A DNA stretch of 64,000 nt from Acidobacteria bacterium RIFCSPLOWO2_02_FULL_65_29 (lineage in GTDB: Bacteria; Acidobacteriota; Vicinamibacteria; Vicinamibacterales; CAVVIG01), in contig MEKT01000174.1 of the NCBI GenBank assembly GCA_001767435.1, positions 36,299-100,298 on the forward strand, read 5' to 3'. A program made the translations under genes and the position numbers. Under the pieces are notes generated by a model. The model worked only from the letters and a program-made list of their open reading frames with translations. It was not told the DNA's origin and made no database searches. This document shows, piece after piece, positions 3,631 through 61,168 of the stretch. Within the stretch, counting starts at the first letter, position 1, and every line of letters starts with the position of its first letter.

Positions 3631-3891
3631 ATGACCGAGTTGAAGCTGTTGTCGGTAGACGAGAAGCTCGCCGAAATCAGACGCCTGTACTTTCAGACGA
3701 CGCGGCAGACTATTCAGCGGGATCTGGAGCGCGCGCTCGGACTCCTGAAATCGATGTCCACCGAAGAGCAGCGCGAGCGGGCGACGGTCTACATGGAAGG
3801 GCTCGCCGAGATGAACAAGGACTGGCTCAGGAGCGCTGGACGCAAGAAGGGCAAAGGGGCGAGGGCAAAGGGCAAAGGGCAAAGGGCATAG
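3631..3891 (+). CDS. hypothetical small protein (86 aa) with a Lys/Gly-rich tail encoded by a heptamer repeat
   Basis: ORF 3631..3891. Its ATG lies 1 nt after the polX stop. The helical-looking sequence is MTELKLLSVDEKLAEIRRLYFQTTRQ...; no family recognised. The last ~14 codons lie in the GGGCAWA repeat. Confidence 0.5.
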   Translation: MTELKLLSVDEKLAEIRRLYFQTTRQTIQRDLERALGLLKSMSTEEQRERATVYMEGLAEMNKDWLRSAGRKKGKGARAKGKGQRA

Positions 3892-3900
3892 GGCATAGGG
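3849..3900 (+). repeat. heptamer tandem repeat GGGCAWA x7.5 (eight G3-4 tracts with 3-4 nt loops)
   Basis: Units are GGGCAAA GGGGCGA GGGCAAA GGGCAAA GGGCAAA GGGCATA GGGCATA GGG. They lie between the convergent 86-aa ORF and the HEAT-like gene. Confidence 0.9.
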
Positions 3901-3901
3901 C

Positions 3902-4687
3902 TCATTTCTTCGACGTCGCCGCGACGACCTTCTTACGGGCGGCCACGCGCAGCGGCTCCGGGACGTTGCGATCGTTTGACAGCTGGGTCAGGTCCCGATC
4001 GTTCAGCCGGTTCATCATGTTCATCGACATGGCCAGCGGCGTCTTCGGATTCTTCGTGAGCCCGAGGACGACCCCGTAGTTCTTGGTCCACGCGCGGTTG
4101 CTCCCGATGATGCGGAGGATCTCTTCCCCAACGTTCGTCATCCGCGAAAAGGTGGCGACTTCCTGCTCGGTCAGTTTCGGGCTGCTCAGGACCGTCGCGC
4201 TGATCATTTTGTTCGGATCGCGAATGAGGATGGCTCGCATCTCGCGCGAGCCCTTCGACGCCGCCCTGAGCCGATCGGTGAAACCCATCTTGTTCAGCTG
4301 CATCGTGACGCTCACTCGGCGTTCGTCCTCGTTTGCGCCTGCCGGAGCCTCCTCTTTGACCTCGGCCTCCGTATCGACCAACGGCTGATCGGCCTCGGGC
4401 GCCGGAGTCTCGGCCGGCAGGATGCCGCGGTCCGCGAAGAACTCGCGCACGCCGATCGGGACGTCGGATCGCGCAAGAAACGCCGCCAACTCGGCCACGG
4501 GAATGCGGTTCAGCGTCTGGTTCGCCGTGTCCCTCACCTCGGGATCCGGATCGGCGAGGAGCAGCACGAGAATGCCGACTTGCTCCAACGCGCGCGGCGC
4601 CAGCGCGCCTTGCGCCGCCTGCAGCCGCACGTCGCGCGGAACGTCGCCGCGCTTGAAGAGGTCGAGCAACGGCGTGGGGGCTGTCAC
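3902..4687 (-). CDS. hypothetical protein, HEAT/ARM-like repeats
   Basis: ORF 3902..4687 with a GTG start overlapping the rodZ stop (GTGA). It has a coding-like composition and an acidic linker. The C-terminal block is ILIRDPNKMISATVLSSPKLTEQEV...LGLTKNPKTPLAMSM. No precise family recognised. Confidence 0.7.
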   Translation of the reverse strand: MTAPTPLLDLFKRGDVPRDVRLQAAQGALAPRALEQVGILVLLLADPDPEVRDTANQTLNRIPVAELAAFLARSDVPIGVREFFADRGILPAETPAPEADQPLVDTEAEVKEEAPAGANEDERRVSVTMQLNKMGFTDRLRAASKGSREMRAILIRDPNKMISATVLSSPKLTEQEVATFSRMTNVGEEILRIIGSNRAWTKNYGVVLGLTKNPKTPLAMSMNMMNRLNDRDLTQLSNDRNVPEPLRVAARKKVVAATSKK

Positions 4688-5487
4688 GGGGCTGCGAGAT
4701 GATCCTTGAAGTTCGCGAGCGTGAGGCGCGTCGTAATGACCTGTCCGGAACGGCCGAGCGGCCTGGCAGCGGCGCCGTTCAGCGTGAGCACGAGCCCGCC
4801 GGCGTCGCCCGCCGTGAGGACGAGCTCGCGGCGAACATCCAACTCCTGCCGCTCCCCTGCCTGCAGAAGGCGTGCGAGGACGCGCTGGCCGTCCACGATC
4901 GCCGACACCCAGCAGAGTGCGGTTGCCGACACGCCGACCGTCAGCCGATCGGCCGGGAACGTTGGAGCCGGCGGTGGCGCGGTCGGCGGCGCCTCGAACG
5001 CGTGCGCCGAAATGGGCAACGTGTCCGCGGCGGCTCGCGCCGGCACGGCCGGTCGTTGCTCCGCCTGGTCGTCGAGCGCACGCCCGCCGAACATGCCGAA
5101 GTACAAGACGATGCCAGCAATCGGCAGGGCGACCGCCACGAGACGGAGAATTGTCGCGGCCATGCGCCGATCGCTGTCGAGCGCCTCGCTGTCTTCGATG
5201 CGCGCCGCGTTGGGATGGCCGGCCGTCACCGAGTCGTTCGGAAAATGCGCGATGAAGTCCCGGATGGTCTCTTCCGGCTCCAGTCCCACTTCGCCTGCAT
5301 AGGCGCGGACGAAGGCGCGGCTGAAAATCCCACCTGGCAGGCGCGAAATGTCGTTCCGCTCGAGCGCTTCGAGCGCGCTCATGGAAATCTTGGTGGTGTT
5401 CGCGATCTGACGCAGCGAGACGCCCTTGCGCTCACGCGCCTCGCGAAGCGTGCCGCCAAAACCGCCAGGGTTGCGTTCGGGTGCCAT
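4684..5487 (-). CDS. rodZ: RodZ-like cytoskeleton protein (N-terminal HTH, TM segment, DUF4115-like C-terminus)
   Basis: ORF 4684..5487. The HTH is GGTLREARERKGVSLRQIANTTKISMSALEALERNDISRLPGGIFSRAFVRAYA. A single TM segment (ILRLVAVALPIAGIVLYFGMF) is followed by a C-terminal beta-rich domain. Confidence 0.75.
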   Translation of the reverse strand: MAPERNPGGFGGTLREARERKGVSLRQIANTTKISMSALEALERNDISRLPGGIFSRAFVRAYAGEVGLEPEETIRDFIAHFPNDSVTAGHPNAARIEDSEALDSDRRMAATILRLVAVALPIAGIVLYFGMFGGRALDDQAEQRPAVPARAAADTLPISAHAFEAPPTAPPPAPTFPADRLTVGVSATALCWVSAIVDGQRVLARLLQAGERQELDVRRELVLTAGDAGGLVLTLNGAAARPLGRSGQVITTRLTLANFKDHLAAP

Positions 5488-6475: not shown

Positions 6476-8716
6476 CTACCCTCGCGCCTGAACTCTCGCG
6501 AGACGGTCGACGCGGGCGACGACGTCGCGATAGTCGCCGGCCTCGGCCTGCAGTTCAATGCAAATCGCCAGGGCCCGCGCCAATTCACCGCTGTCTTCGA
6601 GCGCCTGGGCCAGCTCGTACAGGAGTTGGTGCCCCTCCTCGGGCGTGGGCGCTGGCGCCTCGGCGGCGCGCTCGAACCACGCGAGCGCCTGCGCCAACAT
6701 GCCGCGCTTCCGGAAAACATGGCCGAGGATGGACGCAGTGGCAAAGCGAAGGCGCGGCGCCTTCGAGGCCAACTGCAGGATCGGAATGGCTTCGTCGACC
6801 TGTCCGGCCTCGAGCAGCGCGACGCCGCGCCTGAACTCCTCGTCGGAGCCGCCGAGCGGCGAGCGCTTCGCCGAGTCGTCGCGCGGTTTGGCCGACACGG
6901 CGTGGAGATGGCCAGCGGCGTCAGCGGCCGGCGGCGCGGGCTCTGGTCTCTCCGGCTTCTTCATGTCGGTCGGCCCGATCAGATCGACCTTCACACCATC
7001 CGAGCTGCTGTTCGCCGTCGGCGCGTTCTCGAGGTCCGGGGTGCCGTGCACATCGAGCGCGTTCGGCCCCGAGGCACCGGGCGTCATCGCCGCAACCGGC
7101 GGCCCGACAGCCGGCTGTCGTCGAAGCGAATCGTCGAGGTTCGACACCACCGGCGCATCGACGCTGGTCGCCGGCGCCGGTTCCGGCCCCTCCGCCAGGC
7201 ACGTCGCCGAGGGCTCCGACGTCAACTCGAACGCCGGCAGCTCCTCTCCGCGCAACGACAGGTCGGTGCTCATGAACGGCGACTGGCCACTCAGTCGCTC
7301 AGCGATGACCCCGTCGGGATCGGGGTCTCCCATGAGCACCAGCGCGCGGCGAAACCGCTCGATGTTGGCGCGGTCCCACGGCTCGCGCGCGACGAGATCT
7401 TCGGCAATGAACCGCGCTTCGAAAGCCGAGCCTGCCGTGATGTAGGCGTCGGCCAGCTGCGCTTGGGCGCTGTACATCGTGGCCTCGAGGCCGCCGTCGA
7501 CGCAGATTTCGACCAGACGCAACAGCGCAGGAATGTGATTGGGCACGCGCGTCACGAACTCCTGGATTCCGGCCGCTGCCGACGGCCAGTCCTCGGCGGC
7601 GACAGAGGCGTCGGCCGCGAGTTCCACAACCCGGAAGCCGGCGTCCGGTGTGCGTTCGGCCACCGTCCAGCCGAGCATCGCCACGTCCTGACGGCGCATC
7701 GGATCGTCGGCAAGGAGCCGGCGCGCGATCTCGACGCCTTCGTCGACCCGCCCGCCGCGCAGCCGGATCTCGGCGACCATCAGCAAGAGCTGGGGGTCGT
7801 TGCCAGCGGTCTCGGCGGTGAGATACTCGGCGGCGGTCGCCAGATCGCCACGAGCCGAAAACGCGCGCGCCAGGAGCGTCTGCAGCTCGAGATCCGATGG
7901 CTCGAGACGCGCGGCCTCGCGCAGCGCCGCCAGCGCTTCGTCGGCCTGGCCCTTCGCGTCGAGCTGGGCGGCCATGGCCTTGAACTGCGCGCTGGTGGAC
8001 GCGCATTCGCGCGCCCGCACGAAATCGCCGTTGGCCAGGTGCACCTGCAGCAGCTGCTCACGGACGTCCTGATCGTCCGGGCTGAGGAGGGCGGCCTCGC
8101 GCAGCGCCTCGATCGCCTCGGTCTGACGCCCCTTCTCGGTGAGCTCGGCCGCCAGCTCCTTGAAATCGCGCAGCGCGCCGGCGGCGTCGTTGACGTCGAT
8201 CCGGGCCCTGGCGGCGGCGAACCGCGCCGCGTAATCGGCCGGGTCGATCATGGCCAAGCGGATTCGCATCTGCGCCACGCCGCGCTGGTCGCCTTTGTTC
8301 CTCCGGAGCTCGAGCAACGTGTTCAAGTAGGCGCGTGCATCGCCCAGCAGCCCCTGGCTGCTGGCGATCTCGGTGCTCTGGAGCAGCGCGTGCTCGTGGT
8401 CGGGCTTGATCCTGAGGACCTTCTTGTAGATCGCGTGCGCTTTGGAGAGGAAGCCCTCGTCGCTCAGGCTGTCGGCGATATGGACGAACCGATCGACCGC
8501 CCTGTCGACCTGCCCGGCGCGCACGTACAAGTCGCCAAGAACATTGCCGGTGTTCCAGTCGCGCGGGAATTTTTCGACGACGCGCAGGTATTCCGCGATG
8601 GCCAGGTCAGGTTTTCCCTGGCGAAGCAGCGTTTCGGCGTTGCGCAGCACAGCCGCGCGATCGATGTCCACGGTCCAGGCTGTTGGTCCTCCCCGCGACT
8701 CGGGGAATCGCCGCAC
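6476..8716 (-). CDS. tetratricopeptide-repeat protein (746 aa)
   Basis: ORF 6476..8716. It has repeated TPR-like helices (AIAEYLRVVEKFPRDWNTGNVLGDLYVRAGQVDRAV, etc.), a disordered middle, and a C-terminal TPR block. An alternative start is GTG 8671. Confidence 0.8.
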   Translation of the reverse strand: MRRFPESRGGPTAWTVDIDRAAVLRNAETLLRQGKPDLAIAEYLRVVEKFPRDWNTGNVLGDLYVRAGQVDRAVDRFVHIADSLSDEGFLSKAHAIYKKVLRIKPDHEHALLQSTEIASSQGLLGDARAYLNTLLELRRNKGDQRGVAQMRIRLAMIDPADYAARFAAARARIDVNDAAGALRDFKELAAELTEKGRQTEAIEALREAALLSPDDQDVREQLLQVHLANGDFVRARECASTSAQFKAMAAQLDAKGQADEALAALREAARLEPSDLELQTLLARAFSARGDLATAAEYLTAETAGNDPQLLLMVAEIRLRGGRVDEGVEIARRLLADDPMRRQDVAMLGWTVAERTPDAGFRVVELAADASVAAEDWPSAAAGIQEFVTRVPNHIPALLRLVEICVDGGLEATMYSAQAQLADAYITAGSAFEARFIAEDLVAREPWDRANIERFRRALVLMGDPDPDGVIAERLSGQSPFMSTDLSLRGEELPAFELTSEPSATCLAEGPEPAPATSVDAPVVSNLDDSLRRQPAVGPPVAAMTPGASGPNALDVHGTPDLENAPTANSSSDGVKVDLIGPTDMKKPERPEPAPPAADAAGHLHAVSAKPRDDSAKRSPLGGSDEEFRRGVALLEAGQVDEAIPILQLASKAPRLRFATASILGHVFRKRGMLAQALAWFERAAEAPAPTPEEGHQLLYELAQALEDSGELARALAICIELQAEAGDYRDVVARVDRLARVQARG

Positions 8717-9365: not shown

Positions 9366-9394
9366 GTAGAAGTCAGAAGTTACTTCCTACTTCC
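9366..9394. repeat. GTAGAAGT-CAGAAGT / TACTTCC-TACTTCC inverted word pair
   Basis: Located between rplS and rnhB. The right arm encodes the last codons of L19. The same AGAAGT word recurs at 36458-36471 and 49668-49701. Confidence 0.7.
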
Positions 9395-9770: not shown

Positions 9771-9790
9771 GGCGGGTCTGAAGACCCGCC
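9771..9790. repeat. REP-like palindrome GGCGGGTCT-GA-AGACCCGCC (GCRGGWCT-NN-AGWCCYGC family)
   Basis: Perfect 9-bp arms, located between the trmD stop (9791) and the rplS start (9742). Confidence 0.85.
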
Positions 9791-10586: not shown

Positions 10587-11159
10587 TCACTGCTCACTTC
10601 CGGTCGCTGGCCTTGCGGCAACCGGTTGAGACCGCGCGTTCAATTCGAGCAACCCGCGTGGGGGCGCAATCACGATGCGCCCGCCCGGCACGTCGATCGT
10701 CGTGCAAATCTCGAGCACGAACGGCACGAGCACCTCGGCGCCCGCGGCCTCGACCACCAGCCGGCTTCCGCCCGCGCCGCCCTCCACGCCTCTGACGATG
10801 CCGAGCGGCTCGCCGGCGCGAGTCTCGACGCGGCACCCCACGAGATCGTGGTGATAGTAGGTTCCAGACGGAAGCGGCGCGAGCCACTCGACCGGCACCC
10901 GAAGCTCCAACCCGGCCAGGCCGCTCGCCGCGTCCATATCCTCGACGCCGCTGACGCCGATCACGGGCCGCGCGCGGTGAAAACGCACCGTCGTCACGCT
11001 GATCGGTTCGACGACTCCGGTGCGATTGATGAACAATTCCGCGCCTGCCCGGAACCGCTCATCCGGAAAATCAGTCTCCGGATTGACGATGACCTGCCCC
11101 TTGATGCCGTGGGCCCGCGCGATTCGTCCGACGACGGCCATTTCCTCCCATTTCGGCAT
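10587..11159 (-). CDS. rimM: 16S rRNA processing protein RimM
   Basis: ORF 10587..11195 trimmed to ATG 11159 ([36 protein letters not shown]). The first 12 track codons are encoded by the ATTGCAGA repeat. Confidence 0.85.
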
Positions 11160-11189
11160 TGCAGAATTGCAGAATTGCAGAATGACAGA
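11158..11189. repeat. octamer tandem repeat ATTGCAGA x3 plus one degenerate unit
   Basis: Units are ATTGCAGA ATTGCAGA ATTGCAGA ATGACAGA, filling the spacer between the KH gene and rimM. Confidence 0.9.
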
Positions 11190-11195
11190 ACGCAA

Positions 11196-11740: not shown

Positions 11741-11804
11741 CGGCTGCACTCCTTGATACGGCTCGGGGCTCGCGACCCGAGTCGAGAATACGCTGCACGG
11801 TGCG

Positions 11805-11892
11805 GGCAGGACTGAAGTCCTGCACCACAACTCTGGCAGGACTGAAGTCCTGCGCGACAACCCTCGGGTGTAGTGCAGGTCTTTAGACCTGC
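11805..11892. repeat. three REP-like palindromes: GCAGGACT-GA-AGTCCTGC x2 (inside a 30-bp tandem duplication) and GCAGGTCT-TT-AGACCTGC
   Basis: Hairpins lie at 11806-11823, 11836-11853 and 11875-11892, all with perfect 8-bp arms, in the ffh-rpsP spacer. Confidence 0.9.
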
Positions 11893-11912
11893 CTGCCATC
11901 GAGCCCCGGGGA

Positions 11913-16525: not shown

Positions 16526-16530
16526 GGAAT

Positions 16531-16575
16531 CCTTCGAACCGGTTTCACAACGTTTAAACCACGAAGGCACGAAGG
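16531..16575. repeat. CCTTCG ... CACGAAGG-CACGAAGG inverted word pair
   Basis: Located in the ftsY-ribD spacer. CCTTCG at 16531-16536 is the reverse complement of the CGAAGG in the two tandem octamers at 16560-16575. Confidence 0.75.
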
Positions 16576-16589
16576 TTCTTCTTTGTTTG

Positions 16590-17923: not shown

Positions 17924-17950
17924 GGACCTGCGGGACCGCGCGGACCTGCA
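17924..17950. repeat. 9-mer tandem repeat GGACCTGCG GGACCGCGC GGACCTGCA
   Basis: Three units directly downstream of the stop of the beta-lactamase-like gene. Confidence 0.75.
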
Positions 17951-20159: not shown

Positions 20160-20166
20160 CTAAGAT
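20137..20166 (+). promoter_or_regulatory. candidate vapBC promoter TTGACC-N18-TAAGAT
   Basis: TTGACC at 20137-20142 and TAAGAT at 20161-20166. ATG 20174 lies 7 nt after the -10 box. Confidence 0.45.
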
Positions 20167-20172
20167 GACCAA
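20152..20172. promoter_or_regulatory. perfect 21-bp palindrome TTGGTCATCT-A-AGATGACCAA (candidate antitoxin operator)
   Basis: The reverse complement of 20152-20161 equals 20163-20172. The palindrome contains both divergent track start codons (20159 minus, 20165 plus), so both ORFs begin with MTN. Confidence 0.6.
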
Positions 20173-20422
20173 CATGGCCATTCGCTCTCGTACAGCCCGA
20201 TACGTCAACATCGCTGAAGCCAAGGCGCGGCTGTCGGAGCTCGTCGGCAGAGCGGCCGTTGGCGAGGAAGTCGTGATCGCCAAGGATCACAAGCTGGTCG
20301 CCAAACTGGTACCGCTCCGAGCGGCACGCACACCGCGCAAGCCTGGATCGGCCAAGGGCCAGATTTGGATCGCCCCCGATTTCGACGCGATACCGCGTGA
20401 TTTCTCAAAGTACGTCAAATGA
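20165..20422 (+). CDS. vapB: type II antitoxin, Phd/YefM-like (VapB-type partner of the PIN toxin); ATG 20174 is an alternative, possibly leaderless start
   Basis: ORF 20165..20422, with VNIAEAKARLSELVGRAAVGEEVVIAKDHKLVAKLVPL followed by the tail GQIWIAPDFDAIPRDF. It overlaps the toxin start by 4 nt. Confidence 0.8.
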   Translation: MTNMAIRSRTARYVNIAEAKARLSELVGRAAVGEEVVIAKDHKLVAKLVPLRAARTPRKPGSAKGQIWIAPDFDAIPRDFSKYVK

Positions 20423-20805
20423 GGGTCTTACTCGACACACAGGCCTTCCTGTGGTGGGTCGACGAGGCTTCGCATTTGAGCTCACGCGCCCGCACAGCCA
20501 TCGCCGCGCCGGACAACGAGGTCTTCCTGAGCATCGCCAGCTGCTGGGAGATCGCCATCAAGGTGAGTCTCGGCAAGCTTCGGTTGAAGGCGCCGGCCAA
20601 GCGCTTCTTCCCCGAGCAACTGGCAGCCAACGCTTTCGAGCTGCTCGGCGTCGAGCTCGATCACGTCTGTCGGGTGGCGACGCTGCCGTTCCACCACCGC
20701 GATCCGTTCGATCGTCTGCTCGTCGCACAGGCGATCGAGGAAGACCTCACGGTAGTGTCGACCGACGAGGTGTTCGAGCGCTACGGCGTCTCACGAATCT
20801 GGTAG
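20419..20805 (+). CDS. vapC: type II toxin, PIN-domain ribonuclease VapC
   Basis: ORF 20419..20805, with MRVLLDTQAFLWW...FLSIASCWEIAIK...HRDPFDRLLVAQA...VVSTDEVF. The PIN acidic residues are in the expected spacing. Confidence 0.9.
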   Translation: MRVLLDTQAFLWWVDEASHLSSRARTAIAAPDNEVFLSIASCWEIAIKVSLGKLRLKAPAKRFFPEQLAANAFELLGVELDHVCRVATLPFHHRDPFDRLLVAQAIEEDLTVVSTDEVFERYGVSRIW

Positions 20806-24247: not shown

Positions 24248-24256
24248 GGCAATAGA

Positions 24257-24383
24257 TAATCGAGTAATCGAGTAATCGGGTAATTGCGTAATGGATTGAT
24301 TGGCGAATCGAATTGGCTGGCCTGTTATCTCAATGCTCCCGATCCAATTACTCGATTACCCGATTACCCGATTACCCAATTAC
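24257..24383. repeat. inverted arrays of octamers: TAATCGAG-type x5-7 (24257-24312) and CCGATTAC-type x5 (24344-24383)
   Basis: The left arm reads TAATCGAG TAATCGAG TAATCGGG TAATTGCG TAATGGAT... The right arm reads CCAATTAC TCGATTAC CCGATTAC CCGATTAC CCAATTAC. The right units are reverse complements of the left units. Located in the pgpA-cinA spacer. Confidence 0.9.
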
Positions 24384-24822
24384 CCAACGCCAGGATCCCC
24401 CTGAGGGCGACATTGGCGTACACGGCGGCCATCAGGTCGTCGGCCATCACCCCAACGCCACGGGGCAGGCGTTCGAGCCGGTTGGCGGGATACGGCTTGA
24501 CGATGTCGAACAAGCGAAAGAGCAGGAACCCCGAGCCGACCGACACCCAGCCGACCGGGTTCATGAACATCGTGACGAGCATGCCCATGACCTCGTCGAC
24601 CACTGCCGGACCAGGATCGGTGGCGCCAAAATGGCGTTCGGCAACACCGCTGGCCCACGCGCCGACCGCGAAGGTCAGAACGATGACCGCCGCCTGAACG
24701 AACAGAGACGCCGGCAGCACGAACCACAGGGCGAGCCCCGCCAGCGACCCGAACGTGCCTGGCGCAACAGGTGCGTATCCAACGCCGCAGCAGGTGGCGA
24801 TCGCGAGCGCGACGGAACGCAT
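24364..24822 (-). CDS. pgpA: phosphatidylglycerophosphatase A
   Basis: ORF 24364..24822, with GVGYAPVAPGTFGSLAG...DPGPAVVDEV.G...FRLFDIVKPYP...ERLPRGVGVMADDL. The stop codon lies inside the CCGATTAC repeat arm. Confidence 0.85.
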   Translation of the reverse strand: MRSVALAIATCCGVGYAPVAPGTFGSLAGLALWFVLPASLFVQAAVIVLTFAVGAWASGVAERHFGATDPGPAVVDEVMGMLVTMFMNPVGWVSVGSGFLLFRLFDIVKPYPANRLERLPRGVGVMADDLMAAVYANVALRGILALGNWVIG

Positions 24823-24835
24823 CGGACGCGGGTGA

Positions 24836-34693: not shown

Positions 34694-36454
<1,761 letters not shown>

Positions 36455-39453: not shown

Positions 39454-39615
39454 ATGGGTCGAATTGGACTTCCCGAGCTGGTGATCATCTTTCTCATCGT
39501 GATCGTCATCTTCGGGGCCAATCGTCTGCCGCAGCTCGGCAAGGGCATCGGCAGCGCGATTCGCAATTTCAAGGATGGGATCAAGGACGAGACCGCCGAC
39601 CACAAGGGCAACTAG
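39454..39615 (+). CDS. tatA: twin-arginine translocase subunit TatA/E (53 aa)
   Basis: Below the ORF-track size cut-off. My translation from ATG 39454 (AAGGAG 8 nt upstream) is MGRIGLPELVIIFLIVIVIFGANRLPQLGKGIGSAIRNFKDGIKDETADHKGN*. Confidence 0.85.
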   Translation: MGRIGLPELVIIFLIVIVIFGANRLPQLGKGIGSAIRNFKDGIKDETADHKGN

Positions 39616-41852
39616 CGGCGTTTCTGGCGCTCTCTCCGTCCGGGCCTCTGCTTCGGGCGTCTGCGTTCGAACCGGGGCCGCGCCGCTGATCGGTGCGGGC
39701 CCCGTTCGCCTTCCCTGACACGCTCGAGGATCTCCACCAGGCCCAGATCGATCTGCCGGAGCTCTTGGCTCACGCGAACGACCTGCACCTGCACCTTGTC
39801 GCCGAGCCGATAGGTCTTCTTCGTATTCTCGCCGCGCAGGACGTGCGCCTCCGCCTCGAACCGGTAATAGTCGTCGGCCATCGTCGACACGTGCACCAGC
39901 CCCTCGACATAGTGCTCGATGAGCTCGATGAAGAGCCCAAAGGCCGCGACGCCCGTCACGTAGCCCTCGAATTCATCGCCGACTTTGTCGGCCATGAACT
40001 TCACTTTCTTCCACTGCACGAGCTCCCGCTCCGCCTCGTCGGCACGGCGCTCCATCTCGGAGGTGTGCCGGGCGATCTCGGGTAGGTCCTCGGTGAGACT
40101 CTCGCGCGCCTCCGCGGTCAGGTGGCCCTTACGCGCCGCGCGCAGCGCGCGGTGCACCACGAGATCGGGATACCGGCGGATCGGCGAGGTGAAGTGGGTG
40201 TAGCTCGGCGACGCCAGCCCGAAGTGGCCGAGGTTCTCGGGCGCGTAGCGTGCCTTCTGCATGGTGCGCAGCATCAGAAAGGCAATCGGCTTCTCCTCGG
40301 GCTTGCCGTGGATCTTCTCGAGCAGGCGCTGAAAGTGGCGAGGTTTCAACTGGTCGAGCGGCGCGGCCAGACTGCAACCGAACCCCGAAACGAACTCCTC
40401 GAACTTCGCCACCTTGAGGACGTCGGGCGCCTCGTGGATGCGGTAGAGCGACGGCGCCGCCTCGGCGTCGAGATAGGTCGCGACGGTCTCGTTGGCCAGG
40501 AGCATGAACTCCTCGATCAAGCGGTGCGCCACGTTGCGCTCGAGCGCGATGATGGCCTCGACCAACCCGGCCTCGTCGATCACGACTTCGGTCTCGTTCA
40601 AATCGAAATCGATCGACCCGCGGCGGCGGCGCGCGTCGTTCAGCACGTGAAAGAGCTCGTGCATCAGCTCGAACATCGGCACGAGCGCCTTGTACTGCGT
40701 GATCAACGCCGGGTCGCGGTCGGTCAGGATGCCGTTGACCGCCGTGTAGGTCATGCGCTCGTCGCTGTGGATGACGCCATCGTGGAACTCCCGCCGCACC
40801 ACGACGCCACCTGGATCGATCTCCATGAAGCACGACTGGACCAGGCGATCGACGCGAGGGTTCAGGCTGCACAGGCCAGTCGCCAGTTCCGAGGGAAACA
40901 TGTGCACGGCGCGCTCGGGGAAGTACACCGACGTGCCGCGGTCGTAGGCCTCCCGATCGAGTGCGCCGCCCTCGTCCACGTAGTGCGACACGTCGGCGAT
41001 GTGCACGCCGAGCCAGTAATGGCCGTCGGCCAGCCGTTCGATCGTGATCGCGTCGTCGAAGTCGCGTGCATGCTCGCCGTCGATGGTCACCGTCAACAGG
41101 CGCCGGAAGTCGCTGCGTCCGCGGATGTCCCGCGGCGACACACCCGAGCCGAGCCGGACGGCCTCCGACACCGCCTCCTCCGAGTGCGCGTCGGGAATGC
41201 CGTACTTGCTGATGATGATCTCGTTGTCGACGCCTGGCGCGTTGATGTCACCGAGCACCCGCGCGACTCGTCCGAGCGCGCCGCGCGTCGCCGTGGGCCA
41301 GCGCGTGACCTCGACGGCCACCATCTCGCCTGCCTGGGCACCGCGCTCCTCGCCCGGCGGCACGACCACGTCGATGAGCACTCGCCGATCGAAGGGCACG
41401 ATATGCGCCCGGCCGTCCTCGCCGCGCTCGTACCGGCCGACGAGCCCGCGCGCGCCATGTTCGAGGATCCGGATGATGCGCCCTTCGGTGCGCCCGCCCT
41501 CCTTGACCCGCTCGATTCGCGCGACCACGCGATCGCCGTGGGTGGCGTCGTTCAGATGCGGGCCCGCGATGTAGATGTCGCCGCCCTCGATCGGCCGCTC
41601 CGGCACGACGAAGCCGTAGCCTGAGGGATGCGTCTGCAGGCGGCCGACGTGCAGGTCCATCTTTTCGGGAAGGCCGAACCGATGACCGCCGACCAGCACC
41701 AGGTCGCCCGCCGCGACAAGCGCCTTGAGATGACGCGTGAAGGCCGCCCGCTCGTCGCGGGGCACTTTCAGCACTTGAAGGAGCTCGCGCGCGCCGGCAG
41801 GATGGTGCACGCGCTCGCGCATGAGCAAGAGGATTCGATCTGATGACAACAT
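39612..41852 (-). CDS. rnr: ribonuclease R
   Basis: ORF 39612..41852. It has cold-shock-like N-terminal domains and an RNB domain (TIDGEHARDFDDAI...YFPERAVHMFP). An S1 domain (GDEFEGYVTGVAAFGLFIEL) and a basic tail follow. Confidence 0.9.
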   Translation of the reverse strand: MLSSDRILLLMRERVHHPAGARELLQVLKVPRDERAAFTRHLKALVAAGDLVLVGGHRFGLPEKMDLHVGRLQTHPSGYGFVVPERPIEGGDIYIAGPHLNDATHGDRVVARIERVKEGGRTEGRIIRILEHGARGLVGRYERGEDGRAHIVPFDRRVLIDVVVPPGEERGAQAGEMVAVEVTRWPTATRGALGRVARVLGDINAPGVDNEIIISKYGIPDAHSEEAVSEAVRLGSGVSPRDIRGRSDFRRLLTVTIDGEHARDFDDAITIERLADGHYWLGVHIADVSHYVDEGGALDREAYDRGTSVYFPERAVHMFPSELATGLCSLNPRVDRLVQSCFMEIDPGGVVVRREFHDGVIHSDERMTYTAVNGILTDRDPALITQYKALVPMFELMHELFHVLNDARRRRGSIDFDLNETEVVIDEAGLVEAIIALERNVAHRLIEEFMLLANETVATYLDAEAAPSLYRIHEAPDVLKVAKFEEFVSGFGCSLAAPLDQLKPRHFQRLLEKIHGKPEEKPIAFLMLRTMQKARYAPENLGHFGLASPSYTHFTSPIRRYPDLVVHRALRAARKGHLTAEARESLTEDLPEIARHTSEMERRADEAERELVQWKKVKFMADKVGDEFEGYVTGVAAFGLFIELIEHYVEGLVHVSTMADDYYRFEAEAHVLRGENTKKTYRLGDKVQVQVVRVSQELRQIDLGLVEILERVREGERGPHRSAARPRFERRRPKQRPGRRERQKRR

Positions 41853-41860
41853 CTCGAGGC

Positions 41861-43180
41861 TCAGGCCAACAGGACTATTTGAAGGTCGCCGACGTTGGTG
41901 CCGGTCGGCCCCGTGTGCACAAGGTCTCCGATGGCGTGAAAAAACGCGTAGGAGTTGTTATCGGCGAGAAAGCGCGACGGGGGGGCGAGACCGGCGCGTT
42001 CGGCACGCAGCATGGTCTCCGTGTCGACCAACGCGCCGGCGGCGTCGGTCGGGCCGTCGATGCCGTCGGTGCCGACGCTGGCGGCCGCCGCCCACCCGAG
42101 CGACGCCAGGGGCTCGGCCGCCGACAGCGCGAATTCCTGGTTCCGGCCGCCCCGGCCCGAGCCGGTGACGCGAACCGTCGTTTCACCGCTCGACACCACG
42201 CACAGCGGACGCGCGGAAGTCGCCGCCAGCGCCGCGATCGCCTGGAGGTGCGCGGCGGCCGCGTCCTTGGCGAACCCCACGACCGGCGCATCGAGCGCAT
42301 GGGTCTGGTACCCGAGTCGCGCCGCCTCCTCCGCCGCACCGCGCATCGCGTCGTGGCGGCCGCCAATCACGCGAGTCTCTGCTCGCGCCAGGCGGCGGTC
42401 GCCCGGCTTGGGTGTCTCCGGCAGGTCGCCCGACCGACCGCGCGAGAGCCGCGTCACAACCGCCTCCGGATAAGCATCGGCGCCGTTGAAGCGCTGTAAC
42501 ACGTCCAGCGCCTCGGCGAAGGTGGAGGGATCGGCCACGGTCGGCCCCGATCCGATCACGCTCGGGTCGTCGCCGACGACGTCGGAAATGGCCAGCGCCG
42601 TGCACGGGGCCGCGGCACCCGCCGCGAGCCAGCCGCCCTTGACCGCAGACAGGTGCTTGCGCACCGTGTTGAGCGCGTGGATGTCGGCGCCCGCCTTGAG
42701 CAGCGTGTCGGTCGTCTCCCGCTTGTCCTCGAGCCTCAGCCCGTCGGCGGGCACCGCCATCAGTGCCGAGGCGCCGCCCGACAGCAGCACGAGCAGCTCG
42801 TCGCCGGCGCCGGCCAGGCCCGCCACCGCCAGCGCGCGGCGACCCCCGCGTTCGCTTCCGCCGGTCGGCATCGGATGGCCGCCTGCGATGCATTCGATGC
42901 GCGCGCCCCTCGCCAGATCCTCGTGGTCGAACATGAACGACGAAGTCAGCTCCGGCGTCACGACCACGCCGCCCTTGACGCGACGGCCCGCCGATCGCAT
43001 CGCCGCGGACGCCATCGCGGGCGCCGCCTTGCCCGCCGCGATCAGCCACACGCCGGCTTCACCGGTTTCAGGCGCCATCGACCACGCGCGCTCGACCAGC
43101 CGTCCGGCATCGACCGCACGAAGAGCGGCCCGGACGATGGCGAGGAGATCGGAACGAAGAACGTCGAGGGACTGCTTCAG
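41861..43180 (-). CDS. glycerate kinase / hydroxypyruvate reductase-like (DUF4147 + MOFRL domains); start probably non-canonical (CTG 43180); track ORF starts at ATG 43078
   Basis: ORF 41861..43078 contains IAAGKAAPAMA...LSGGASALM and VVSSGETTVRVTGSGRGGRNQEFAL. The in-frame upstream translation LKQSLDVLRSDLLAIVRAALRAVDAGRLVERAWS looks like the family N-terminus. It contains no ATG, GTG or TTG. Confidence 0.8.
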   Translation of the reverse strand: MKQSLDVLRSDLLAIVRAALRAVDAGRLVERAWSMAPETGEAGVWLIAAGKAAPAMASAAMRSAGRRVKGGVVVTPELTSSFMFDHEDLARGARIECIAGGHPMPTGGSERGGRRALAVAGLAGAGDELLVLLSGGASALMAVPADGLRLEDKRETTDTLLKAGADIHALNTVRKHLSAVKGGWLAAGAAAPCTALAISDVVGDDPSVIGSGPTVADPSTFAEALDVLQRFNGADAYPEAVVTRLSRGRSGDLPETPKPGDRRLARAETRVIGGRHDAMRGAAEEAARLGYQTHALDAPVVGFAKDAAAAHLQAIAALAATSARPLCVVSSGETTVRVTGSGRGGRNQEFALSAAEPLASLGWAAAASVGTDGIDGPTDAAGALVDTETMLRAERAGLAPPSRFLADNNSYAFFHAIGDLVHTGPTGTNVGDLQIVLLA

Positions 43181-43461
43181 TGCGTGTGCTTGGGATCGGA
43201 CCAGGCAGAGAGCCCGGTGACGACATCGAATTTCTTGAGCAGAGAGCTGACCACCCGGTCGGCGTCGTCTTTCGCGCAGAGATGCTCGAGCTGGCTCATG
43301 ATGCGGGTCAGCGCCGCCTCGACGTCGGTTATCGCATCCTCAGAATAGTAGGGACGCTGCTGCTGCAGACAGCGATGGTGCTTGATGAACTCTTCTCGGT
43401 AAAACTCGGTGATGGGGTGCCGCGCGCTGATAGGCCTCGAGTCGGTCACGAAGCGTGGCAT
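43177..43461 (-). CDS. hypothetical protein (94 aa), no family recognised
   Basis: ORF 43177..43461 (ATG start). Third-position GC is coding-like and the composition is balanced (MPRFVTDSRPISARHPITEFYREEFIKHHRCLQQQRPYYSEDAITDVEAALTRIMSQLEHLCAKDD...). Its TGA overlaps a CTG of the glycerate kinase frame. Confidence 0.55.
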   Translation of the reverse strand: MPRFVTDSRPISARHPITEFYREEFIKHHRCLQQQRPYYSEDAITDVEAALTRIMSQLEHLCAKDDADRVVSSLLKKFDVVTGLSAWSDPKHTH

Positions 43462-43545
43462 GCAGATCCTCGAGAAGGGTGAATCGTCCGACTGACCTAT
43501 CCAGTGTAGTGCCGCTCGAAAATGCCTGTCAAGATTCCCGGTCGC

Positions 43546-44436
43546 TCACGAGTCACGGCCGCCCGAGGCCACGAGCCCCCCGAAGCAGCCGACGAGCATG
43601 CCGCCGGCCAGCAGCACCAGGCACAGCTCGAGTGACAAGAAACGTACCGACGACAGGTTGACAGCCGCCGCGAGCGGCATCAAATAGCGACCGCGAATGG
43701 CCAGGAAGACGGTGGCCAGCGCCGCCAGCGCCAGGGCGGCCCCCATCCCGCCCTGCAGCACTCCCTCCATGATGAATGGGCCCCGGATGTAGGCGTCCGG
43801 CGCCCCGACGAGCCGCATGATGTCGATTTCGTCACGCCGCGCGTACAGCGCCAGCCGGACCACGTTGGCCACGGTCAGCGCGGCCGCCACCGTCAGGAAC
43901 GCCCCGAGCACCAGCCCGACCCCTTGGAGCACGTTGACCGCCGCCAGCAGGCGATCGAGCCACTGCCGGTCGTAGCGCACGTCGACCACGCCCTCGCTCC
44001 GGCGCAGGCGCGCGGCAAGCTCGTCGACCGCGTCTTGCGATCCGGGCGTGGTGTGCAGACGCACCTCGTAGGACGCCGGTATCGGATTGTCGCCCACCGT
44101 CTCGGCGGCCGCCGCGAGATCGGCAAACGTCTGCTTGAAGCGTTCGAGCGCCTCGAGCTTCGTAACGAACCTGAAGCTGACGATGAGTGGGCCCGGGGCG
44201 AGCATGGCTTCGACCGCCGACCGCATCTCGGGGGTGGTCTCGTCATCGATGTACACCGACATCTCGGCGGCGCGGCTCCACTCGGCGCCGAGACGCTCGA
44301 GGTTCGAGGTCGCCACGAGGAATGCGCCGAGCACGAACAGGGCGACGGCGATGGTGGCGGTGGACAGCAGGCCCGAGGTGCGCCCGCGCCACAAGCTGGC
44401 GAGGGCTTCGTCGAAGGCGTACTGCAGGGCGCGCAT
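43546..44436 (-). CDS. ftsX: cell division permease-like protein FtsX
   Basis: 3' part of ORF 43546..44727, from ATG 44436 (TGATG overlap with ftsE): MRALQYAFDEALASLWRGRTSGLLSTATIAVALFVLGAF..., with four TM segments and a periplasmic loop. Confidence 0.85.
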   Translation of the reverse strand: MRALQYAFDEALASLWRGRTSGLLSTATIAVALFVLGAFLVATSNLERLGAEWSRAAEMSVYIDDETTPEMRSAVEAMLAPGPLIVSFRFVTKLEALERFKQTFADLAAAAETVGDNPIPASYEVRLHTTPGSQDAVDELAARLRRSEGVVDVRYDRQWLDRLLAAVNVLQGVGLVLGAFLTVAAALTVANVVRLALYARRDEIDIMRLVGAPDAYIRGPFIMEGVLQGGMGAALALAALATVFLAIRGRYLMPLAAAVNLSSVRFLSLELCLVLLAGGMLVGCFGGLVASGGRDS

Positions 44437-45158
44437 CAGACGATCTCGACGATCTGCCCGTGGTCGAGCGTAATGGCGCGCCGGCCGACGCGGCGGATGA
44501 GCTCGCGGTCGTGCGTCGCGACGACGACGGTCGTGCCGCTGGCGTTGATCTCGCGAAACAAGTTCATGATTTCCAGTGAGAGATCCGGATCGAGATTGCC
44601 CGTCGGCTCGTCGGCGAGCACGAGCTGCGGATCGTTGACGAGCGCGCGGGCGATGGCGATGCGCTGCTGTTCGCCGCCCGACAGCTCCTCGGGGAGCGAG
44701 TTCATGCGATGCTGCAGGCCGACCCATTTCAGCACTTGGAAGGTCTTCCGCTGCTGCACGGCCGCCTGTACGCCGAGCACCCGCATGACGAAGGAAACGT
44801 TCTGAAACACCGTGAAGCGCGGAATCAGCCGGAAGTCCTGAAACACGAATCCGACCGACCGGCGATACGCCTGCACCTGGCTGTAGCTGAGATCCGCCAG
44901 GCTCCTGCCCGCGACTTTCAGCTCGCCCTCGCTCGGCAGCTCCTCGCGCAAGAGCAGCCGCAGCAACGTCGACTTGCCGGCGCCGCTCGGGCCGGTCAAG
45001 AACAGGAACTCGCCCTTGTCGATTGTGAGTGAAAGGTCACGCAGCGCATGGACGCCGCGGCTATAGAGCTTCGAAAGCTTGGAAGTCTCGATCAGGGCCT
45101 TCAGTATAGCACGCAGGGCTGAGAGGGCGGAGTCCACAGTTGACAGTCGACAGTTCAC
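44436..45158 (-). CDS. ftsE: cell division ATP-binding protein FtsE (start uncertain: GTG 45158 lies inside a repeat; family alignment suggests CTG 45095)
   Basis: ORF 44436..45158, with (L)IETSKLSKLYSRGVHALRDLSLTIDKGEFLFLTGPSGAGKSTLL, LSGGEQQRIAIARAL and [12 protein letters not shown]. Confidence 0.9.
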   Translation of the reverse strand: MNCRLSTVDSALSALRAILKALIETSKLSKLYSRGVHALRDLSLTIDKGEFLFLTGPSGAGKSTLLRLLLREELPSEGELKVAGRSLADLSYSQVQAYRRSVGFVFQDFRLIPRFTVFQNVSFVMRVLGVQAAVQQRKTFQVLKWVGLQHRMNSLPEELSGGEQQRIAIARALVNDPQLVLADEPTGNLDPDLSLEIMNLFREINASGTTVVVATHDRELIRRVGRRAITLDHGQIVEIV

Positions 45159-45205
45159 AGCGCGGTCAACCGCCCACTGTTGACTGTTAACTGCTGACTG
45201 TCGAC
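45132..45205. repeat. second copy of the heptamer-array element (GTCCACA GTTGACA GTCGACA GTTCACA / TGTTGAC TGTTAAC TGCTGAC TGTCGAC)
   Basis: Located in the gatB-ftsE spacer. It shares GTCCACAGTTGACAGTC with the reverse complement of 29162-29191. Confidence 0.9.
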
Positions 45206-45212
45206 TTCGCCG

Positions 45213-49667: not shown

Positions 49668-49701
49668 AGAAGTGAGACGTTGGAACGAAGTTCTCACTTC
49701 T
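49668..49701 (+). repeat. perfect 10-bp stem hairpin AGAAGTGAGA-N14-TCTCACTTCT
   Basis: Located between the anti-sigma stop (49662) and the ispH ATG (49720). Confidence 0.85.
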
Positions 49702-54763: not shown

Positions 54764-54809
54764 GCGGGACTGTAGTCCCGCCGGACATGTAGTGAGGGAC
54801 TTTAGTCCC
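54764..54809. repeat. two REP-like palindromes GCGGGACT-GT-AGTCCCGC and GGGACT-TT-AGTCCC
   Basis: The palindromes lie at 54764-54781 and 54796-54809 in the MFP-RND spacer. The second is preceded by TGTAGTG, as is the copy at 11869. Confidence 0.85.
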
Positions 54810-54832
54810 GCGGGATCGTCAGGAGCTTTCGT

Positions 54833-59858: not shown

Positions 59859-59861
59859 CCC

Positions 59862-61079
59862 ATGTCTCCCGTCATGACGTTCCGGATCGCGTTCAAGGCG
59901 CTTGGGCGTAACAAGATGCGCACCGCGCTCACGATGCTCGGCATGATCATCGGCGTCTCGGCCGTGATCACGCTCGTCGCCATGGGCCACGGCGCGACGT
60001 CGGTGATCGAAGACCAGATCAAGGGCGCCGGCACGAACATGATTACCGTGAACGCCGGCAACTTCACGCAAGGCGGCGCGCGCGGCGGATCGGGCTCGGC
60101 GACGTCGCTCACGGTTGAGGACGCCGACGCGATCCGGGAGGAAGTACCCGGCGTGCAGTACCTGTCGGCCGGCGTCCAGAATCGCTATCAGGTCGTCGCC
60201 GGCAATCAGAACTGGTTCACCCGCATCCAAGGGACCGACGTCGATCTTCCGCTCATTCGCGCCTGGCCGACGCGCACGGGTACCTTCTTCAGCCCGCAGG
60301 ACGTCACCAGTGCGGCGAAGGTCGCGGTGCTCGGCAATACCGTGAACACACAGCTGTTCGGCGAGGGCGAAGACCCCGTCGGCCAGATCGTCCGCATCCG
60401 CAATCAGCCGTTCCGCGTGATCGGCGTGCTCGCGTCCAAGGGCCAGGGCATGGGCGAGGACAACGACGACCAGGTCCTCGTGCCCTACACGACGCTGCAG
60501 AAGAAGCTGATGGGGACGACCCATCTCCAGAACATCACGATTTCGGCGGCCTCGGCCACCGAGACGTCGAAGACGGCCGATGCGATTGCGGTGCTGCTCA
60601 GGAGCCGCCACCAGATCGTGCCCGGCCAAGACGACGATTTCATGGTCCGCACCCAGGAGGAAATGGCGGACCTGCGCACGCAGGCCATGGGCACCATGAC
60701 GACGCTTCTGGCCGGCATCGCCGGCGTGTCGCTCATCGTCGGCGGGATCGGCATCATGAACATCATGCTCGTGTCGGTGACGGAGCGGACGCGTGAGATT
60801 GGGCTGCGCATGGCGATCGGCGCCAAGGGACGGGACGTGCTCCTGCAGTTCCTCGTCGAGGCCATCTCGCTCAGTCTGCTCGGCGGCGGCGTCGGCATCG
60901 CGCTCGGCTTCGGCATCGCCGAGGGCATGTCCCGCTGGATGTCGTGGCCGGCCGAGGTGCCGCCCGACGCGGTCTTCATGGCCTTTGGTTTTGCCGCGGC
61001 GACGGGAATCTTCTTCGGCTTCTATCCGGCGCAGAAAGCCGCACGTCTGGATCCGATCGACGCCCTGCGGTTTGAATAG
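59862..61079 (+). CDS. MacB-type ABC transporter permease (MacB periplasmic core domain + FtsX-like TM domain)
   Basis: ORF 59862..61079, with FRIAFKALGRNKMRTALTMLGMIIGVSAV and the C-terminal GGIGIMNIMLVSVTERTREIGLRMAIGA...PAQKAARLDPIDALRFE. Confidence 0.9.
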   Translation: MSPVMTFRIAFKALGRNKMRTALTMLGMIIGVSAVITLVAMGHGATSVIEDQIKGAGTNMITVNAGNFTQGGARGGSGSATSLTVEDADAIREEVPGVQYLSAGVQNRYQVVAGNQNWFTRIQGTDVDLPLIRAWPTRTGTFFSPQDVTSAAKVAVLGNTVNTQLFGEGEDPVGQIVRIRNQPFRVIGVLASKGQGMGEDNDDQVLVPYTTLQKKLMGTTHLQNITISAASATETSKTADAIAVLLRSRHQIVPGQDDDFMVRTQEEMADLRTQAMGTMTTLLAGIAGVSLIVGGIGIMNIMLVSVTERTREIGLRMAIGAKGRDVLLQFLVEAISLSLLGGGVGIALGFGIAEGMSRWMSWPAEVPPDAVFMAFGFAAATGIFFGFYPAQKAARLDPIDALRFE

Positions 61080-61088
61080 TGAATGAAT

Positions 61089-61168
61089 CATCTGGTCATT
61101 GGGTCATCCGGTCGGTGATTGAGCACAATCCAACGCAATCAGCGACTCGATGACACGATGACCCGATT
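61089..61168. repeat. inverted arrays of octamers CATNNGGT x3 / ACNCGATG x3
   Basis: CATCTGGT CATTGGGT CATCCGGT (61089-61112) faces ACTCGATG ACACGATG ACCCGATT (61145-61168). Located in the spacer between the MacB permease and its ATPase. Confidence 0.85.

Follow-up and report, generated by a model that had tools for sequence, protein, structure and literature searches.

Spacers of ordinary housekeeping operons in an acidobacterial genome contain tandem arrays of 7- or 8-nucleotide (nt) words, and at five loci the array is followed, after a loop, by a tandem array of the reverse-complement word, such that the spacer can fold into a long periodic hairpin. The stretch analysed, referred to throughout as the window, comprises 64,000 nt of contig MEKT01000174.1 of Acidobacteria bacterium RIFCSPLOWO2_02_FULL_65_29, a member of the Vicinamibacterales (Acidobacteriota) from the Rifle aquifer, and has a GC content of 63-70%. 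Judged by their sequence, the arrays are repeat pairs of the kind described as short tandemly repeated repetitive (STRR) sequences in cyanobacteria and as heptamer repeats in Xanthomonas, now in a new phylum and with a broad vocabulary of words. On balance, we think it probable that they are locally evolving, dispensable DNA-level hairpin microsatellites with hepta- or octanucleotide units, which are tolerated as filler rather than maintained as dedicated regulators.

Tandem and inverted arrays in operon spacers

Tandem Repeats Finder (TRF) recovered all of the arrays listed in a first-pass annotation of the window, two plain hairpins excepted. According to a rough gene map derived from GC content at third codon positions, 91.8% of the window is coding and 8.2% intergenic, and 15 of the 20 arrays with a period of 7, 8, 14 or 16 lie within the intergenic fraction (binomial p=6e-13), which bears out the intergenic, operon-spacer location originally reported. 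Thirteen arrays fall inside spacers, compared with a mean of 0.37 (maximum 3) when the same spacers were shuffled 200 times with dinucleotides preserved. In the window as a whole, nine arrays have an inverted two-unit partner, compared with a mean of 2.1 (maximum 4) in shuffles of the whole window. As had also been noticed, the arrays are AT-richer than their flanks (GC 0.36-0.66 versus 0.67) and several run into gene ends, namely the stop codons of pgpA and of rplS, which encodes ribosomal protein L19, the called GTG start of ftsE and the tail of an 86-amino acid (aa) open reading frame (ORF). Where loci had been selected by GroEL alone (1.39 Mb), period 7 leads among the periods not divisible by three, with 43 arrays as against 11 of period 8, six of period 5 and two of period 10.

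The first-pass annotation had ascribed one architecture to at least ten spacers. The tandem words are real, but the full arrangement of tandem array, loop, inverted tandem array and significant fold is common to only about half of those listed. These are the five loci beginning at 24248, 29110, 34686, 45112 and 61080, each of which folds far better than shuffled sequence, both as RNA and as DNA; at each, the inverted partner has two units or more and lies within 150 nt (24257/24347, 29124/29163, 34690/34779, 45131/45176 and 61088/61144). The genes that flank the listed loci belong to the operons ffh-rpsP-KH-rimM-...-rplS-rnhB, ftsY/ribD, pgpA-cinA, ntrY-ntrX, groES-groEL and gatB-ftsE-ftsX and to a MacB-type ABC system; a scan of the window for tRNA genes found none.

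In the pgpA-cinA spacer (24248-24395, minus strand), inverted arrays of the 8-nt word GTAATCGR are present. About five units on the pgpA side (24344-24392) are followed by a 54-nt loop and by an inverted arm of about 4.5 units (24257-24292) that ends 10 nt before the ATG of cinA. The 46-nt arms are 80% complementary, and the RNA fold has an energy of -66.9 and a z score of -8.1. The last eight codons of pgpA and its TAA stop (24364-24366) are themselves array units, and the C terminus of the protein (G-N/T-R-V/A-I-G) is preserved though encoded by them. Two spacers share the heptamer GTYGACA. That between ntrY and ntrX (29110-29209, minus strand) has arms of about four units each (at about 29121-29152 and 29163-29192), separated by a loop of 11 nt, with RNA z scores of -1.5 for the sense and -4.4 for the antisense strand, and that between gatB and ftsE (45112-45212, minus strand) has four units in each arm (45131-45160 and 45176-45206) and an 18-nt loop, with a z score of -6.4 for the RNA fold of 45125-45212; the called GTG start of ftsE (45137) lies within its final unit. 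In the groES-groEL spacer (34686-34831, plus strand), TCRGCNN units of period 7/14 (34690-34724) face inverted CTGANAG units (34779-34819), the 26-nt arms are 85% complementary (RNA z score -4.7) and a GGAGAA Shine-Dalgarno sequence follows the 3' arm. The fifth element, between the MacB-type permease and ABC ATPase genes (61080-61180, plus strand; z score -3.8), consists of 3.2 copies of TCATCNGG (61088-61113) and three inverted copies of CGATGACN (61144-61167). Many arrays, among them those at 29163-29192, 34690-34819 and 45131-45160 and several in relatives, score as period 14 with about two copies, with alternating A and B variants of the unit. This hints that four-unit arms may arise by two successive doublings, not by slippage of single units.

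The remaining listed loci comprise two mini versions, one plain hairpin, two tandem-only arrays and one that is unsupported. At 9368-9394 (minus strand) there is a mini inverted array of 2+2 units without a loop (AGAAGTC AGAAGTT / ACTTCCT ACTTCC; z score about -2), the rplS-side arm of which encodes the last codons of L19 and its stop (9380-9382). A weak member between ftsY and ribD (16526-16589, minus strand) has two copies of CCTTCGTG and one inverted CGAAGG, with a z score of -1.5 that is not significant. The plain hairpin, AGAAGTGAGA...TCTCACTTCT (49668-49701, plus strand), lies between an unannotated gene, itself downstream of an extracytoplasmic function sigma factor gene, and ispH/lytB; its 10 bp are not tandem (z scores -2.3/-3.3), and it contains an AGAAGTN word. 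The tandem-only arrays are GGGCAWA x7.9 (3847-3901, plus strand), which fills the gap between two convergent genes and encodes the tail and stop of the 86-aa ORF, itself unsupported by any Pfam match, and ATTGCAGA x3.2 (11158-11190, minus strand), between the KH-domain gene and rimM. Neither has an inverted partner or a fold (z scores of about 0 to -1); the (G3N4)n pattern of GGGCAWA is capable of G-quadruplex formation. The GC-rich 9-mer GGACCTGCG x2.9 (17924-17949), with no partner and a z score of -0.9, was excluded from the class. The hairpin potential first proposed is upheld for the main loci; no significant fold is seen at 3847, 11158, 16526 or 17924, and the inverted partner is lacking at 3847, 11158 and 17924. 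One array had been missed, a tandem AGAAGTT AGAAGTC (36457-36470, plus strand) between the groEL stop and a canonical terminator (36485-36513 followed by a T-run).

Gain, loss and drift at syntenic junctions

About 72 kb of this genome, the window included, is represented by scaffold_507 (71.9 kb) of the European Nucleotide Archive (ENA) metagenome ANAN16-1_SAMN03842439. The window GatB is 100% identical to a protein from a metagenome-assembled genome (MAG) named 'Acidobacteria bacterium RIFCSP...' at NCBI, and the nearest relatives are MAGs of the Vicinamibacterales, to whose GroEL that of the window is 83-87% identical. Syntenic loci were obtained via NtrX homologues of 86-91% identity (L202, L203, L205 and L207-L211) and from a scan with GroEL (L002 and L005); a further relative, L214, has a GatB 85% identical to that of the window, and L212 is a contig from another sample that is 99.995% identical over 20.4 kb. 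In L208 (ENA ERZ25039588 contig_17466) most genes, including groEL, cinA and ntrY, are fragmented, which suggests a frameshift-rich long-read assembly, and its array lengths consequently need to be treated with caution.

Some arrays are clearly inherited. The pgpA-cinA junction holds the word GTAATCGR in the window and in L202, L205 and L210. Its arms there have 3-5 units and its loop 0-54 nt, so that copy number changes between orthologous spacers. The array is missing in L203, L209 and L211, and in L207 pgpA and cinA overlap. Similarly, an AGAAGTN array lies in the interval between the groEL stop and the terminator in the window, L005, L202, L205 and L210, and its word drifts among them. The CTGAGAG/CAGCTGA word of the groES-groEL spacer is found in the window and L205 only; no array of the window type was seen there in L202, L203, L207, L210 or L211, and in many further relatives the spacer measures just 10-40 nt.

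Other elements appear to be recent. The ntrY-ntrX spacer of the closest syntenic relatives (L202, L203, L205, L207 and L210) is 0-28 nt long, or the two genes overlap, and has no element, and the 101-nt gatB-ftsE element is wholly missing in L214, with BLAST breakpoints at 45213 and 45111. Both GTYGACA copies in the window are lineage-specific gains of a complete 4+4 element. They were considered as transposed copies of one another, a view that was rejected: the arms are similar, the loops differ. An upstream ATGCTGA shared by the two was likewise discarded as part of the element, being the native conserved end of ntrY (ELPC*). A comparison of the ntrY-ntrX loop (CAG-CGTGAGCAC-CTG) with a small spacer hairpin of L203 (CCTG-CGTGAGAAA-CAGG) gave a 7-nt match, and MAFFT placed the L203 sequence elsewhere; that the loop is a relic of such a hairpin is suggestive only. 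At the position of the 49668 hairpin, L214 has a tandem-only AGAAGTC AGAAGTG with no inverted arm where the window has AGAAGTGAGA...TCTCACTTCT, a difference that appears to record the birth of an inverted arm. The arrays in L212 are identical to those of the window, which argues that they are not hypervariable, insofar as a single comparison of consensus assemblies, independently assembled, can do so.

The same junctions may be occupied by quite different words. At ntrY-ntrX, GTYGACA in the window is replaced by GGTTCNN in L002 and L209, by TNRGGCA in L005 and by 8-mers of CCACGAAG in L208, and at groES-groEL inverted heptamer arrays with unrelated words are present in L013, L016, L019 and L035. 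Two further elements were seen elsewhere in these relatives. A 256-nt convergent spacer in L005 (940-1195) has little in it but heptamers of the ATCGATG/ATCGGTA type, which run in both orientations, and, with an RNA fold of -122 kcal/mol, is the largest such element encountered. Downstream of groEL in L211 (1557-1941), arrays of GTCGCAA/GTCGCTA and a canonical terminator are followed by about six copies of a 21-nt-period unit, GCGACGCGGACCAGCGACTTA, which may represent a heptamer-based repeat of higher order.

Vocabulary, arm length and published counterparts

The first-pass annotation held that each locus has its own word and that only GTYGACA recurs. Neither statement survives. In the window itself, AGAAGTN is found at three loci (9368, 36457 and 49668) in addition to the two copies of GTYGACA, the 5' arms of which match at 28 of 31 positions, and the vocabulary recurs at non-orthologous loci of relatives and in unrelated genomes. 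Spacers of the Vicinamibacterales relatives that are not orthologous to those of the window contain CACGAAG/CTTCGTG (clear inverted arrays in L203, L205 and two spacers of L208, corresponding to the weak 16526 locus), GAACTGA/TTCTCAG, ATTTMAG, GGGATTA/TTAGGGC and AGCTGAT. Telomere-like G-rich heptamer arrays were also observed in such spacers, at 7658-7702 of L202 (TTAGGGC/TTAGGGA/TTGGGGA) and at 7034-7070 and 17528-17566 of L002 (GGGATTA/GGGATTG); these resemble the Nostoc word GGGGATT and the Xanthomonas word GGGAATC.

A scan of metagenome contigs for GTYGACA with CAGTTRACAGTCAACAG returned at least 120 stretches. Among the matches listed, contigs of 59-70% GC show the architecture of the window, usually with four GTYRACA units on either side of a loop that is 10-104 nt long and unrelated in sequence, and this hairpin was found in dozens of contigs of GC 0.59-0.70. 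In the 22 GTYRACA elements listed from contigs of GC of at least 0.59, GTCGAC forms the outermost unit in 26 of 44 outermost positions. Contigs of 35-48% GC among the matches listed, which look cyanobacterial, have long tandem-only arrays beside other heptamer arrays. In these cyanobacteria-like contigs (loci L082-L201, for example L092, L100, L110, L179 and L200), CAGTYAA arrays adjoin arrays of TAGTCAT, TTGGGCA, TTGGTAA and TTGTTAT to give composite multi-word blocks. Contig L129, one of those of 59-70% GC with the GTYRACA architecture, also has both a GGGCAAA x7.9 and an AGAAGTC x5 array; it and other Ga0156018 contigs were considered as orthologues of the window and set aside, there being no DNA homology. 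In all, the 315 arrays comprise 130 distinct canonical heptamers, and inverted arrays are found mainly in Acidobacteriota, with further examples in NC10 and Omnitrophota contigs. A palindromic core of 6 bp plus 1 nt (as in GTYRAC+A, CAGCTG+A or ATCGAT+G) was tried as a general rule and rejected: with GTYRAC words excluded, it occurs in 1 of 65 paired arrays, compared with a null expectation of 10%. Pure local slippage does not predict a vocabulary shared by unrelated loci and across phyla.

Arm length varies within narrow limits. Across all loci there are 60 inverted pairs, with a median loop of 40 nt. Paired arms cluster at about four units (about 31 nt), 59 of 100 having four to five units, and 56% of paired heptamer arms in loci of GC of at least 0.58 measure 30-34 nt, few exceeding 36 nt. 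The left flank of this peak is in part a matter of what TRF can still detect among imperfect arrays; the steep fall above five units is real. Arms with at least six units account for 7% of paired and 20% of unpaired arrays (p=0.027), and the lengths of the two arms of a pair are correlated (Spearman 0.50, p=0.0015).

The elements had been put forward as a candidate undescribed class, a proposal that is overtaken by published work. Rehm et al. 2015 (PMC4692102) described GGGAATC heptamer repeats in Xanthomonas, also a high-GC host, with 70-75 convergent (inverted) pairs per genome. About 90% of those repeats are intergenic, with enrichment between co-directional and depletion between divergent ORFs, and they lie within 50 bp of a stop codon or overlap it; their location is kept among close relatives with 'extensive length and sequence variation', most are transcribed, and their preference for four units was attributed by the authors to G-quadruplex formation (PMC4692102). 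Every one of these sequence-level traits is also found in the acidobacterial arrays. The differences are the phylum, the use here of 8-nt units as well and, above all, the words: one G-rich word in Xanthomonas, many and mostly not G-rich words here. Likeness to the Xanthomonas word is confined to GGGCAWA at 3847, which is also the one with G3 tracts, and none of the words of the five paired elements (GTAATCGR, GTYGACA, CTGANAG and TCATCNGG) is G-rich or of quadruplex type. The four-unit habit is seen in GTYGACA, GTAATCGR, ATTTCAG, GAACTGA and others that are unable to form quadruplexes, and G-quadruplex formation therefore cannot explain it.

The likeness to cyanobacterial STRR sequences that was first remarked upon holds for the 7-nt unit, the intergenic or intercistronic site, the hairpin potential and part of the vocabulary, and probably also for the multiplicity of words. 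STRR sequences have 7-bp units, with several words per genome, in intergenic and intercistronic positions, and a hairpin-forming example between hupS and hupL has been proposed to act in transcript stability or translational coupling (PMC2670836). The Nostoc words ATTGCGA (csR4) and TTGTCAG (PMC2408588) resemble, respectively, ATTGCAGA, which is also similar to GAATTGC of L013, and CAGTTGA. The CAGTYAA arrays of the cyanobacteria-like contigs form part of this overlap. The STRR3 word is reportedly CAACAGT, which is a rotation of the CAGTCAA unit of the window. Host phylum and base composition differ, the original definition being confined to heterocystous cyanobacteria, and the arrays of the cyanobacteria-like contigs are mostly long and tandem-only, as opposed to the inverted pairs of about four units that are the rule here. 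A further relation is with the TAACTGA direct repeats of Beggiatoaceae, cyanobacteria and Bacteroidetes, intergenic heptamers of 2-6 units whose words hold stop codons, whose arrays abut starts and stops and whose cross-phylum distribution is unexplained (MacGregor 2015, PMC4679880). The units ACTGATT and CAGTTAA found in the present analysis are related to TAACTGA, which is, however, a single dominant word, nearly always in direct repeats (with one inverted case) and mostly just upstream of start codons. A literature search of incomplete coverage found no earlier description of such arrays in Acidobacteriota.

Other classes do not fit. Repetitive extragenic palindromic (REP) sequences, bacterial interspersed mosaic elements (BIMEs) and MITEs (miniature inverted-repeat transposable elements) are likewise intergenic, hairpin-forming and multi-copy. 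Unlike REP/BIME sequences, the arrays share no palindrome of 20-40 nt, their consensus is limited to the 7-8-nt word and they are internally periodic; unlike MITEs, they have no terminal inverted repeats beyond the word and no target duplications, and the loops and flanks of GTYRACA copies are unrelated. Contingency-locus (phase-variation) simple sequence repeats (SSRs) are a poor match as well, with copy numbers identical in L212 and arrays placed between cistrons.

Separate from the arrays, the window contains a family of small palindromes that are GC-clamped and conserved at the centre (GGACTGAAGTCC, GGTCTTTAGACC, GGTCTGAAGACC and GGACTGTAGTCC), at 9771-9790, 11806-11823, 11836-11853, 11875-11892, 54764-54781 and 54796-54811 and also in the groES-groEL spacers of L002 and L209. 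They occur singly, in twos or in threes in spacers, one of which, 163 nt long (11750-11912), folds with a z score of -6.1, and have the look of a genuine REP-type element of the Vicinamibacterales. Two further features concern neighbouring genes. Upstream of groES, a perfect sigma-70-type promoter (TTGACA-16-TATAAT, 34271-34298) is joined at its last base by a repeat resembling the controlling inverted repeat of chaperone expression (TTAGCAGTC-N9-GAGTGCTAG, 34298-34324), which together imply a predicted control of groESL by HrcA. Directly upstream of a 128-aa ORF (20419-20805), a 259-nt 'spacer' (20160-20418) could hold a small uncalled ORF forming a toxin-antitoxin pair with it.

Origin and possible roles of the hairpins

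If the elements are tolerated, locally evolving DNA, as we think, then a short word at a gene junction would be multiplied by replication slippage and an inverted copy made by strand switching, two steps suggested by the established processes of slipped-strand mispairing and quasipalindrome template switching. Turnover would consist of gain and loss of units, drift of the word and, often, total loss. Tolerance at cistron junctions and 3' ends may derive from the self-complementarity of the insert, which would loop out and leave the upstream stop and downstream start close together, and from the 7-8-nt units themselves, which would make start and stop codons available whatever the frame; divergent spacers, which bear promoters, would be avoided. 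Long palindromes are unstable in an SbcCD-dependent manner, and this instability may set the ceiling on arm length. In mRNA, stems of 25-45 bp would be formed inside operons or 3' untranslated regions, upstream of the true terminators, and may incidentally affect processing or stability.

Several groups of observations support this interpretation, among them the missing signs of RNA-level selection given below and a behaviour like that of the Xanthomonas repeats. The persistence of words at the same junction with changed units, altered loops and drift, and the tandem-only state of L214, argue for local evolution, and the lack of the gatB-ftsE element in L214, the lack of the ntrY-ntrX element in five relatives and the overlap of pgpA and cinA in L207 argue that the elements are dispensable and recently gained. 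Of the local generation first proposed, a large part is upheld, in that the word is kept as copy number changes; the distinct word per locus on which the argument was based is not. A number of findings nevertheless weigh in the opposite direction. Divergent spacers are under-used (10 elements, versus 20 in convergent and 85 in co-directional contexts), arm length is sharply peaked and correlated within pairs, and the same words turn up in unrelated genomes and phyla as well as at loci that are not orthologous. Arrays occupy the ntrY-ntrX junction in 5 of 11 relatives with four unrelated words and the groES-groEL junction with unrelated words in five Acidobacteriota, a repeated occupancy that looks like selection for a hairpin there, or hot spots. 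It is the recolonization of junctions by different words, the narrowness of arm length and the vocabulary shared across genomes that keep the alternatives alive.

The first of these is that the hairpins are functional RNA punctuation of which the structure, and not the sequence, is selected, as RNase III sites, as barriers to 3' exonucleases or in translational coupling of the kind proposed for the hupS-hupL STRR (PMC2670836). This is conceivable, but we doubt it. It would account for folds that are strong relative to shuffled sequence, for the position of most elements between co-directional genes, from the stop or near it to the start, for unrelated words at the same junctions in different lineages and for narrow, balanced arms, and the transcription of most Xanthomonas repeats is in keeping with it. 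A function in RNA would, however, predict better folding of the transcribed strand, since G-U pairs are usable there, and no such advantage was found among the 85 co-directional elements (sense better in 47, antisense in 36, p=0.27); of the five elements in the window, some favour one strand and some the other. Nor, in a test of low power, was there covariation between the arms in the register of the units: arm identity is 0.856, compared with 0.867 after permutation, and since permuting the order of units does not lower complementarity, the arms keep no fixed, compensated register of pairing. Close relatives also have these operons without the hairpins, some of them with overlapping genes instead.

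More specifically, the elements are not intrinsic terminators, promoters or Rfam RNAs. No U-tract or T-run follows the 3' arms of the window elements, and the groEL-side arrays lie upstream of a canonical terminator. Among the promoter-like and terminator-like sites scanned for in 24000-43999, none was called on an array; the TTGACA contained in GTTGACA was examined as a promoter and rejected, with no correctly spaced -10 box and no promoter called. Rfam gave no match in the window at the gathering score, and at E<=1 only two unrelated sub-threshold matches, both away from the elements.

It is also rather improbable that the arrays are dispersed copy-and-paste elements, MITE- or REP-like or propagated by ectopic conversion, with each word a spreading family. 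The two lineage-specific GTYGACA gains with their closely matching 5' arms are in keeping with such a process, as are the dozens of 4+4 GTYRACA hairpins that often end in GTCGAC and the appearance of GGGCAAA, AGAAGTC, CACGAAG, ATTTMAG and GAACTGA at non-orthologous loci. Copies of a mobile unit would not be expected to differ as these do in loops, flanks, unit number and order of variants, or to have termini and target sites devoid of the marks of transposition, and so large a number of distinct heptamers, together with several arrays that were clearly inherited and have drifted in place, is hard to reconcile with spreading families. No transposase or REP-associated tyrosine transposase was noticed among the annotated window genes, although no systematic search was made.

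We consider it very unlikely that the arrays are platforms for an oligomeric protein with a 7-nt register, such as HutP or the cold-shock proteins, or cruciform or G-quadruplex elements. The dominance of period 7 among non-coding periods, the preference for four units and the (G3N4)n pattern of GGGCAWA would suit such a role, and binding of CspB to heptamers has been discussed (PMC4679880), but against it stand the dozens of unrelated words within a single genome, the lack of any identified candidate protein or general palindromic core, and the four-unit preference of words that are not G-rich, for which the quadruplex fails. Chance low-complexity sequence or assembly artefact would suffice for the listed loci 17924 and 16531, which do no better than shuffled sequence, and is effectively refuted for the main loci by the spacer counts and intergenic enrichment given above, by the identical independent assembly of L212 and by orthologous arrays in several independent MAGs.

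What would the arrays mean if more than filler were involved? In the most far-reaching case, which must be regarded as a long shot, a mechanism independent of the word would fix each arm at about four units (about 31 nt) across phyla, in Acidobacteriota, in Xanthomonas and in some contigs of NC10, Omnitrophota or cyanobacteria-like type, and favour a shared vocabulary (CAGTYRA, GGGNANN, ATTGCGA-like and AGAAGTN). If this were true, there would be a dedicated generator or reader, for instance an enzyme of templated synthesis or strand switching or an oligomeric protein that binds nucleic acids, the hairpins would be genuine operon punctuation rather than filler, and the G-quadruplex explanation offered for Xanthomonas would be overturned.

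The role of heptanucleotide repeats, whether called STRR sequences or long SSRs, has stood as an open question since 1990. The same architecture is now seen in a third, unrelated and uncultured-dominated phylum with quantitative habits like those of Xanthomonas, and the preference for four units in words incapable of forming G-quadruplexes already weakens that explanation of it. For the annotation of acidobacterial MAGs the arrays matter in a practical sense, since they contribute start and stop codons and change the ends of genes, as in pgpA, rplS and ftsE. Finally, the relatives capture elements in the course of being born, resized and lost at junctions where the genes otherwise overlap, and thereby provide natural pairs, with and without the hairpin, for tests of its effect on operon expression.

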